Shown in pieces: positions 3,725 through 4,945 of a DNA stretch of 64,000 nt. Source of the DNA: a virus. The DNA is taken from the IMG/VR virus record IMGVR_UViG_3300045941_000233, positions 40,286 through 104,285 of that record, one strand, 5' to 3'. The first letter of the stretch is position 1; each line of letters opens with the position of its first letter. Under the pieces are notes generated by a model. That model had not been told where the DNA came from and searched no databases. It was given only the letters and a program-made list of their open reading frames with translations. The position numbers and the translations under genes are program-made.

Positions 3725-4137
3725 CTGCCGACACGGGAAAACGAGTGCAACCGAGCGAAGACGTCCCGTCGGCAGTGAAACAAAGTCCGTCATGGGTGAC
3801 ATAAGCCGTGAAACCGAGTCCACGATTCTCCTGTGACGGCAAATACAAGTCCAGCAGCAGACCCACTAACTGAAATCGAATGGGCCAGTTGCCGCTGGCA
3901 GCCACAAGTCCGCCAGGAGTAGAAGCTAATGAAATCGACACGGCCCGCCCCAGGCGGCAAATCCAAAGTCCCAAGGCAGGATTCACGCTTGAAATCGCGT
4001 ACCGCGATCGCCTTGGGCAAACCCAAAGTCCGCCGGCAGGATGGCGATATGAAACCGGGGTCAACAATTGCCGGCGGCAAACCCAAAGCCCATCGGCAGA
4101 GCCGCGATATGAAACCGACTGCGGAATTCGCCGATGG
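3725..4137 (+). ncRNA. TIGR-like stem-loop guide array, 7 units of ~60 bp
   Basis: Central repeat TG(A/C)AA(C/T)CG(A/C/G) at 3746, 3809, 3871, 3930, 3990, 4050, 4110; each flanked by two 9-nt variable segments, closed by a unit-specific 6-8 bp inverted repeat, with CAAA(T/C)CCAAAGT-like linkers. Confidence 0.85.
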
Positions 4138-4945
4138 CACCCACTCCGTTTGTCAATCTATCGCCAGCGCTCACCGCGAGCGGTCGATTGCGATCAAGTC
4201 TGGCATCATGTTAGGCAATCGCCTTGTCGCGACGATTGCCCAAGTGATCGGCTACCACGCTGGCCGGGACAAGAAGTCGCGCGACAAGCTTTTTTCGGAT
4301 GCCAGAAAAATCGTCAAGTCGCTTTCCAGTCTTTCAGAAGCCCCGGCGTCCGTCGGAAAGATAACGCCCGGCATGCGCGAACAGACTCATTCCCTGTCGT
4401 CGGCCGTCGATAAATTTTCTGATTTGGCAGACGGTCTAGGCAAGGAGATGGTTCGGCTGGCAAAGGAGCTTCCGGTTGCCGAATGGGTTGGCGACAAAAA
4501 TCAGCGCGGCTTCGGGCTTCTGTCTTTGGCTCAAGTGATCGGCGAGACCGGCGACTTGTCGCTATACTCCGCCCCCGGCAAGGCATGGAAGCGGCTTGGG
4601 TTGATGCCGTTCAATGGCAAGATGCCGTCAACTTGGCGCAAACACAAAGGACAAGGCGGCCTGACAGCTAAGCAGTGGACCGAGATTGGCTACAACCCGC
4701 GACGTCGATCGATCTGTTACGTGCTGGGCGAAAATCTCGTCAAGCTGAACGGCAAAGGTCCGTATCGCAAGCGATACGACGAAGCAAAGAAATCAGGCAA
4801 AAAGGATCATCCGGACTGGACGGACGGCCACGCCCACAAACACGGCATGCTATTGGCCGTTAAGCTCCTGATTCGCGATCTTTGGATCGAATGGAATCGC
4901 ATAACAGGCGCAAACCTAATTCGCGATCCATCGATCAAGCCATGA
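3929..4945 (+). CDS. IS110-related Nop-domain protein without nuclease domain (TasA-like)
   Basis: Coiled coil followed by GFGLLSLAQVIGETGDLSLYSAPGKAWKRLGL...YNPRRRS...PYRKRYDEAK...HAHKHGMLLAVKLLIRDLW; no N-terminal DEDD RuvC, no HNH; AGGAG 9 nt before ATG 3929. Confidence 0.8.
   Translation: MKSTRPAPGGKSKVPRQDSRLKSRTAIALGKPKVRRQDGDMKPGSTIAGGKPKAHRQSRDMKPTAEFADGTHSVCQSIASAHRERSIAIKSGIMLGNRLVATIAQVIGYHAGRDKKSRDKLFSDARKIVKSLSSLSEAPASVGKITPGMREQTHSLSSAVDKFSDLADGLGKEMVRLAKELPVAEWVGDKNQRGFGLLSLAQVIGETGDLSLYSAPGKAWKRLGLMPFNGKMPSTWRKHKGQGGLTAKQWTEIGYNPRRRSICYVLGENLVKLNGKGPYRKRYDEAKKSGKKDHPDWTDGHAHKHGMLLAVKLLIRDLWIEWNRITGANLIRDPSIKP

Follow-up and report, generated by a model that had tools for sequence, protein, structure and literature searches.

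A stem-loop TIGR array whose last units overlap the 5' end of a putative tasA gene in a soil phage

TIGR arrays of the stem-loop type, whose repeat anatomy matches that of the array described here, were reported by Faure et al. 2025 (PMC12045711). TasA proteins are RNA-guided DNA binders that act as transcriptional repressors, and stem-loop tigRNAs can lie inside tas coding sequences with the reading frame kept (Xu et al. 2026, bioRxiv 10.64898/2026.09.09.750476). According to the same study, such intragenic units map to disordered regions of the protein, and those of BlTasA from Bifidobacterium longum were recovered by small-RNA sequencing. [quoted passage not shown]

The locus analyzed here lies on a stretch of 64,000 nucleotides, hereafter referred to as the window, that spans positions 40,286 to 104,285 of IMG/VR virus record IMGVR_UViG_3300045941_000233. 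We take it to be a TIGR-Tas system of the stem-loop kind, with a nuclease-less effector of the TasA type, carried by a soil phage of ~104 kb. It has in common with BlTasA, as described in the TIGRFinder survey (Xu et al. 2026), stem-loop units, two short spacers, and a Tas protein that lacks a nuclease. Both also carry in-frame units in the tas coding sequence, in a segment predicted to be disordered. The embedded units of BlTasA are found at the wedge loop, whereas those in the window lie at the extreme 5' end of the gene, and here a candidate Shine-Dalgarno (SD) site and start codon fall within a unit. Further differences are that the stems of the window locus lack a sense-strand CUU at their base, that a conserved partner gene splits its array, and that it is known from sequence alone. 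PlTasA, from a Peromyscus leucopus gut contig (PMC12045711; Guan et al. 2026, bioRxiv 10.64898/2026.08.11.744272), is likewise a solo Nop-domain Tas protein, and both loci have tandem hairpins with variable palindromic stems, two spacers of ~8-12 nt, and sub-arrays. The two sequences are far apart, however, and some members of the family studied here reach weak Transposase_20 (IS110-type) Pfam hits. Only the window's family has the loop motif TGAAACCGA, and the description of PlTasA includes no overlap with coding sequence.

TasA-TasParB operons (PMC12045711) also have an accessory gene in the tasA operon and arrays that lie upstream, downstream, and between genes. Theirs are dual-repeat arrays. 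The partner protein of the window has no detectable ParB or other family. IS110 recombinases with their bridge RNA share with the window locus a homologous C-terminal RNA-binding domain and a structured RNA with two guide segments, but in the window there are no element ends, and a tandem array takes the place of one bridge RNA. Membership in IS110 was rejected, as the N-terminal RuvC-like DEDD domain (PF01548) gave no hit.

The source record comprises 104,285 bases and has an estimated completeness of 93%. Sequence identical to the window was recovered from several soil metagenomes. Comparison of positions 3000-5000 with contigs from four other soil metagenomes revealed complete identity, with zero natural variation, so that coding constraint and RNA constraint are not separable by natural variation. 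The order of elements at the locus is promoter-like site, orphan unit, partner gene, seven hairpin units, and tasA (Table 1), and the TIGR cassette as a whole is placed between packaging genes and the genes that follow.

Table 1. Positions of features at the candidate TIGR-Tas locus, numbered from the first nucleotide of the window.
Feature	Position	Strand	Folding energy (kcal/mol)	z	Remarks
Large terminase subunit	937-2997				phrog_2, E = 2.3e-13; directly upstream of the TIGR cassette
Promoter-like site, TTGACG-16-TACAAT	3007..3034	+			10/12 consensus matches; precedes the partner gene
Orphan unit in leader	3044..3095	+			loop motif TGAAATCG at 3066-3073; 7-pair stem
Partner gene	3090..3716	+			208 aa; basic C-terminus; ends 8 nt before unit 1
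Unit 1	3725..3775	+	-22.5		outside tas ORF; stem CTGCCGAC/GTCGGCAG; loop TGCAACCG
Unit 2	3787..3839	+	-18.5		outside tas ORF; 13-nt arms including G-U pairs
Unit 3	3851..3898	+	-15.0		outside tas ORF
Unit 4	3910..3957	+	-13.2	-0.15	5' arm holds AGGAG 3915-3919; loop gives ATG 3929
Unit 5	3970..4017	+	-21.2	-2.96	in long ORF; perfect 8-bp stem; TTG 3989 in loop
Unit 6	4030..4077	+	-23.3		in long ORF; perfect 9-bp stem; ATG 4049 in loop
Unit 7	4090..4137	+	-21.6	-3.42	ATG 4109 in loop
Putative tasA, long form	3929..4945	+			338 aa; strongest SD match, weakest local structure, family pattern
Conserved Tas core	4145..4945	+			predicted coiled coil and Nop-like RNA-binding domain; no nuclease domain

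The array proper consists of seven hairpin units of ~60 nt (positions 3725-4137) with a conserved TGAAAYCG loop and unit-specific, covarying stems. Each unit follows the plan stem, 2 nt, 10 nt, TGAAAYCG, 10 nt, 2 nt, stem. The stems, of 8-9 bp, differ in sequence in every unit and yet are complementary. Over all seven units, pairing holds in 85.7% of stem cells, and both sides have changed in seven of nine pairs. The covariation score was reached by none of 500 shuffled arrays, and the signal was lost when partner columns were slid against each other. The region thus shows tandem units, two spacers of ~9-10 nt, and a variable palindromic stem, which together define a stem-loop TIGR array. Folding energies of units 5-7 are -21 to -23 kcal/mol (z = -2.6 to -3.4), and unit 4 is the weakest of the seven hairpins, folding no better than shuffled sequence. 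The loop motif begins at 3746, 3809, and 3871 in the upstream units and at 3930, 3990, 4050, and 4110 in the others. The initial annotation had pointed out that the spacing is 60/60/60 inside the ORF and 63/62/59 upstream of it, and our measurements agree; exact 60-nt spacing is found only from unit 4 onward. Among spacers A, the pair from units 6 and 7 has GCGATA as a common 3' end, and those of units 5 and 6 both start with GAT. These shared ends may reflect a recent duplication of units, or constraints that coding places on the embedded spacers.

Tandem Repeats Finder and Rfam found nothing on the array. The region does not have the form of a CRISPR array, in which near-identical direct repeats alternate with single spacers: what is conserved here is a loop motif of 8 nt and a linker of 14 nt, and each unit has its own stem sequence. 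By eye, the spacer flanks on the sense strand read CAG-N10-TG and CGN-N10-YG, near the published sets and not within them; owing to the pseudo-symmetry of the units, the other strand reads similarly. The sense-strand linker, CAAAYCCAAAGUCC, contains no CUU at the stem base, and CUU is present on the antisense strand only. We assigned the strand of the array by comparing G-T with A-C mismatches inside stems. In the units of a family set of 93 non-redundant homologous loci, which carry the loop motif on the tas sense strand, there were 92 internal G-T mismatches vs 46 A-C mismatches, an excess that points to a sense-strand RNA. Transcription of the array from the antisense strand, where the CUU lies, was rejected on this 92:46 ratio. 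Targets matching both spacers were sought in the 104-kb phage genome in all four orientations, with gaps of 0-3 nt and at most two mismatches. Three hits were obtained, all with two mismatches and about as many as expected by chance, and no self-target was found.

The family has a usual layout of array block, partner gene of ~200 aa, array block, and tas, to which the window conforms. An array block 5' of the partner gene, where the window has its orphan unit, is also present in many homologous loci, and tblastn detected partner homologues in 36 related loci, typically between two array blocks. The partner protein of the window matches no family in Pfam or PHROG. It may correspond to the TasParB-like accessory genes reported beside tasA; no ParB signal was seen at the Pfam/PHROG level. 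The promoter-like site upstream of the partner gene is the sole such site before the tas stop codon and is therefore the likely promoter of a single predicted transcript covering the partner gene, array, and tasA. Consensus matching identified no promoter-like site inside the array. No units were found 3' of tas (after 4945) in the window, and a second array is absent from the 104-kb phage. In some homologous loci, such as L043 (+845 to +1008) and L087 (+803 to +1001, both counted from the core start), units do lie downstream of tas.

The ORF that follows the array has 141 homologues, almost all of them unnamed. Alignments of ~120 of these start at residue ~73 of the 338-aa ORF, near nt 4145. 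Pfam gave no significant hit for either the tas ORF protein or the partner protein. An AF2 model computed on 107 sequences had a pLDDT of 92.6; the 278-aa core is all-helical, and the model opens directly with a coiled coil. When this model was compared with the PDB by Foldseek, the ten best matches were all TasR (9mty) or TasH (9vzx, 9w03, 21kl, 9w02, and 9w04), with a probability of 1.0 and TM scores of 0.48-0.62, and TasR 9mty and TasH 9w03 came top (TM 0.51-0.61 for the top TasR and TasH matches). A sequence profile reached 9mty_A at E = 1.9e-10 and TasH at 1.9e-3. No Pfam hit to a nuclease domain (HNH or RuvC) was found in the Tas protein; from profile and model, it is thus predicted to be a nuclease-less Tas effector of the TasA type. 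Some homologues weakly reach PF02371 (IS110 C-terminal), and the protein matches phrog_4285, labeled 'transposase'.

The initial annotation had proposed that the array overlaps the ribosome-binding site and N-terminus of the effector gene. The elements on which this rested, AGGAG at 3915-3919 and ATG 3929 within unit 4, were confirmed at every coordinate. The 20-aa repeat that it had noted in the translation is also present, in the form (M/L)K, five to seven variable residues, and G-K-P/S-K-V/A. A TAG at 3920-3922 closes the tas frame, which is open from 3923 to 4945. Upstream of the core, the only in-frame ATG, GTG, or TTG codons are those at 4109, 4049, 4013, 3989, and 3929, all of which lie in or between array units, so that the overlap itself holds for every candidate start. 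Between 4109 and the core there is no in-frame ATG, GTG, or TTG. A canonical start can therefore lie no further downstream than ATG 4109, within the unit 7 loop, and array and gene must overlap at least in part. The minimum overlap is 29 nt and takes in what remains of the loop motif of unit 7 together with its spacer B and 3' arm; these last two encode residues 4-10 of the short form. The first helix of the model starts at residue 11 of the form beginning at 4109, and the array-encoded residues precede it and have low AF2 confidence. The gene therefore shows what has been described for intragenic tigRNAs, that is, in-frame units within the tas ORF in a low-confidence segment of the protein. 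In the long form, the sole extra N-terminal sequence before the core is the array-encoded tail of 72 aa, which is basic (pI 11.3, 18 K+R) and of low complexity. A single-sequence AF2 model of the 338-aa form had a pLDDT of 38.5 and gives nothing reliable on the tail.

The initial annotation had also suggested that the reading frame is being preserved, and this was borne out by homologous loci and not by the window. The array contains 13.5% T, and the chance of 72 open codons is ~0.09. Across units 4-7, four of the six frames are open, including another frame on the plus strand (3880-4413) and two on the minus strand. Within the window, the open frame is thus not significant, and in an array so poor in T, with most frames open, selection to keep a frame open cannot be demonstrated from this sequence by itself. 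Long ORFs that we regard as spurious cross the array at 3880-4413 (+), 3790-4140 (-), and 3567-4067 (-) because of its scarcity of T on the plus strand, and gene callers could easily mis-annotate this region.

In the homologous loci, a mechanical rule placed the start of each ORF at the codon whose SD match was best. By this rule, 15/20 unit spacings inside ORFs were divisible by 3, compared with 111/283 outside (one-sided Fisher p = 0.002). With hand-picked starts, the corresponding values were 14/15 and 97/240 (p = 5e-5). When all units in a frame open back to the upstream stop were counted, the difference was not significant (24/41 vs 97/240, p = 0.11). This crude test is diluted by stretches upstream of the true start that are open by chance, a problem that the best-SD definition resolved. 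An SD site and start codon upstream of at least two in-frame units occur in 10 non-redundant loci. SD and ATG precede two to five units in L006, L043, L050/L018, L087/L016, L093, L010, L034, and L049, and in the first four of these entries (L006, L043, L050/L018, and L087/L016) the SD is of the AGGAG type. One unit is embedded in the same way in L069, L019, and L100. The embedded units of these loci read NTG-AAA-CCG, which encodes (V/L/M)-K-P. Embedded units keep their stems (22/42) much as other units do (176/293), compared with 19% at random positions. Among 54 non-redundant loci with an upstream array, at least one loop motif lay at or after the best-SD start in 21 and none did in 33; embedding is therefore a common yet optional variant.

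Some features of the homologues were recorded separately. The last unit before the core in L087/L016 has a perfect 10-bp stem (GCCGTCTCTC) whose 3' arm encodes L-P-S-L-C. This peptide ends in residues that form part of the conserved beginning of the Tas core, which obliges the 5' arm of the stem to match protein-constrained codons, and this locus is, as read from its sequence, a tighter candidate for dual coding than the window. The nearest homologues of the window protein (P0002-P0008, ~50% identity) have N-terminal extensions of 100-160 aa. Across the closest homologues P0002-P0011 and P0035, array-derived extensions range from 80 to 165 aa and share a start of the type M-I-A-x-x-K-(P)-K-K-K-x-S, which resembles the C-terminus of the window's partner protein, A-A-R-R-R-K-A-S-stop. 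The shared M-I-A start could be a genuine start kept across these homologues, a leader sequence, or the trace of a fusion between partner and tas. A search of viral contigs with P0003 returned only a fragment. Locus L168 lies in G001, a Thermoguttaceae MAG, and 401 genomes from the same phylum contained no close relative of P0002.

Which codon starts tasA determines how much of the array is translated. Judged from sequence features, ATG 3929 is the likeliest candidate, with about an even chance of being the start. Its AGGAG is a 5-nt SD match at a spacing of 9 and the sole 5-nt match among the candidates; ATG 4049 has AGGA 7 nt upstream, and ATG 4109 has none. Matches of at least 5 nt occur at 2.5% of all window ATGs. 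The weak hairpin of unit 4 would suit an initiation region, and ATG 4049 and ATG 4109 are buried in hairpins of -23.3 and -21.6 kcal/mol, respectively. Alternatively, tasA may start at ATG 4109 (or 4049). Only the last unit (or last two) would then overlap the gene, the frame open to 3923 would be a by-product of a T-poor array of fixed 60-nt period, and the AGGAG and ATG in unit 4 would be a chance look-alike. We regard this as a serious possibility that falls short of even. The low T content and the four open frames over units 4-7 are consistent with it, and AGGAG is a single substitution from the unit consensus GGCAG and so could arise by chance. SD sites are used weakly in this phage, with matches of at least 5 nt near the start of only ~17% of long ORFs (10/57). 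In the family, ATG is enriched in the last in-frame unit (8/13 vs 25% elsewhere, p = 0.007), which would fit initiation at a position like 4109; the best start in L001, L004, and L071 is a loop-motif ATG just before the core; and many homologues begin 2-10 residues before the core. The clear homologous cases of embedding also have their SD and ATG in a dedicated stretch outside any unit, unlike the window, where both lie inside unit 4 and partly in its stem. Against a start at 4109, that codon lacks an SD and sits in a strong hairpin, while 3929 combines AGGAG with the weakest hairpin of the array. The 60/60/60 spacing sets in only at unit 4, and SD-led ORFs in homologous loci run through in-frame units, both of which argue for 3929.

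Two other explanations would deny a guide function to some or all of the repeats. Units 4-7 might be relics that were turned into a repetitive basic N-terminal tail, with only units 1-3 and the orphan unit giving tigRNAs. The tail is indeed basic and disordered-looking (pI 11.3) and could aid nucleic-acid binding, and a similar G-K-P-K-V / x-K-P peptide occurs in L018 and L050, where it derives from a different part of the unit. We nevertheless consider this improbable: no hairpins in the array are better formed than those of units 5-7, with perfect 8-9 bp stems and z = -2.6 to -3.4, the stems of these units vary and compensate, embedded units throughout the family keep their stems like the others, and small-RNA sequencing yielded intragenic tigRNAs of BlTasA (Xu et al. 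2026, bioRxiv 10.64898/2026.09.09.750476). It is more improbable still, to the point of being scarcely credible, that the repeats are DNA-level protein-binding sites or an ordinary coding repeat and no guide array at all. The units do adjoin a conserved partner protein of no known family, but their stem sequences vary while pairing is kept, as DNA iterons do not do, and G-T exceeds A-C within stems. In addition, the neighboring protein has a Tas fold, and units 1-3 lie outside any plausible gene.

The following model, in which we have somewhat better than even confidence, would account for these observations. The array's final units fall within the tasA coding sequence, at its 5' end; in the minimum case, the loop of unit 7 would supply ATG 4109, and spacer B with the 3' arm would encode the first ten residues. 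Translation would most likely begin at ATG 3929 in the weakened, AGGAG-bearing unit 4, and ribosomes would read units 5-7 in the frame NTG-AAA-YCG, giving M/L-K-S/P. The exact 60-nt spacing would keep the frame, and the product would be a TasA of 338 aa whose basic tail is disordered. One transcript, driven by the promoter at 3007, would serve both as tasA mRNA and as guide precursor. If units 4-7 were excised from it or bound by TasA, the RNA would be left without a usable start region and would give no full-length TasA; the next in-frame ATG after 4109 is at 4208, inside the first helix. TasA synthesis would thereby compete with the making of guides for each RNA molecule, amounting to the negative feedback that the initial annotation had envisaged. 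In its strongest form, unit 4 would itself contain the ribosome-binding site and start codon of tasA, three more units would fill the first 60 codons, and TasA binding or the excision of units would switch the transcript between mRNA and guide precursor. We put this forward as a rather unlikely proposal. Under such a switch, a cis-acting ribonucleoprotein feedback would set the ratio of TasA to guide, and a shorter isoform would arise in addition from the ATG that is enriched in the final embedded unit.

The system and its layout are already published, and the locus is a new example, because the intragenic tigRNA layout was described by Xu et al. 2026. What it adds are frame statistics, the finding that embedded stems are retained, a candidate start region within a weakened unit, and the enrichment of ATG in the last unit. 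Numbers are given here where the preprint has words, in that unit lengths preserve the frame inside ORFs and are free outside them. The locus is a candidate for a clean natural case in which one stretch of DNA serves as coding sequence and as guide-RNA precursor. The feedback, if real, would explain how minimal phage systems without a dedicated processing enzyme balance protein and guide, and it would be relevant to the engineering of compact TasA repressors.
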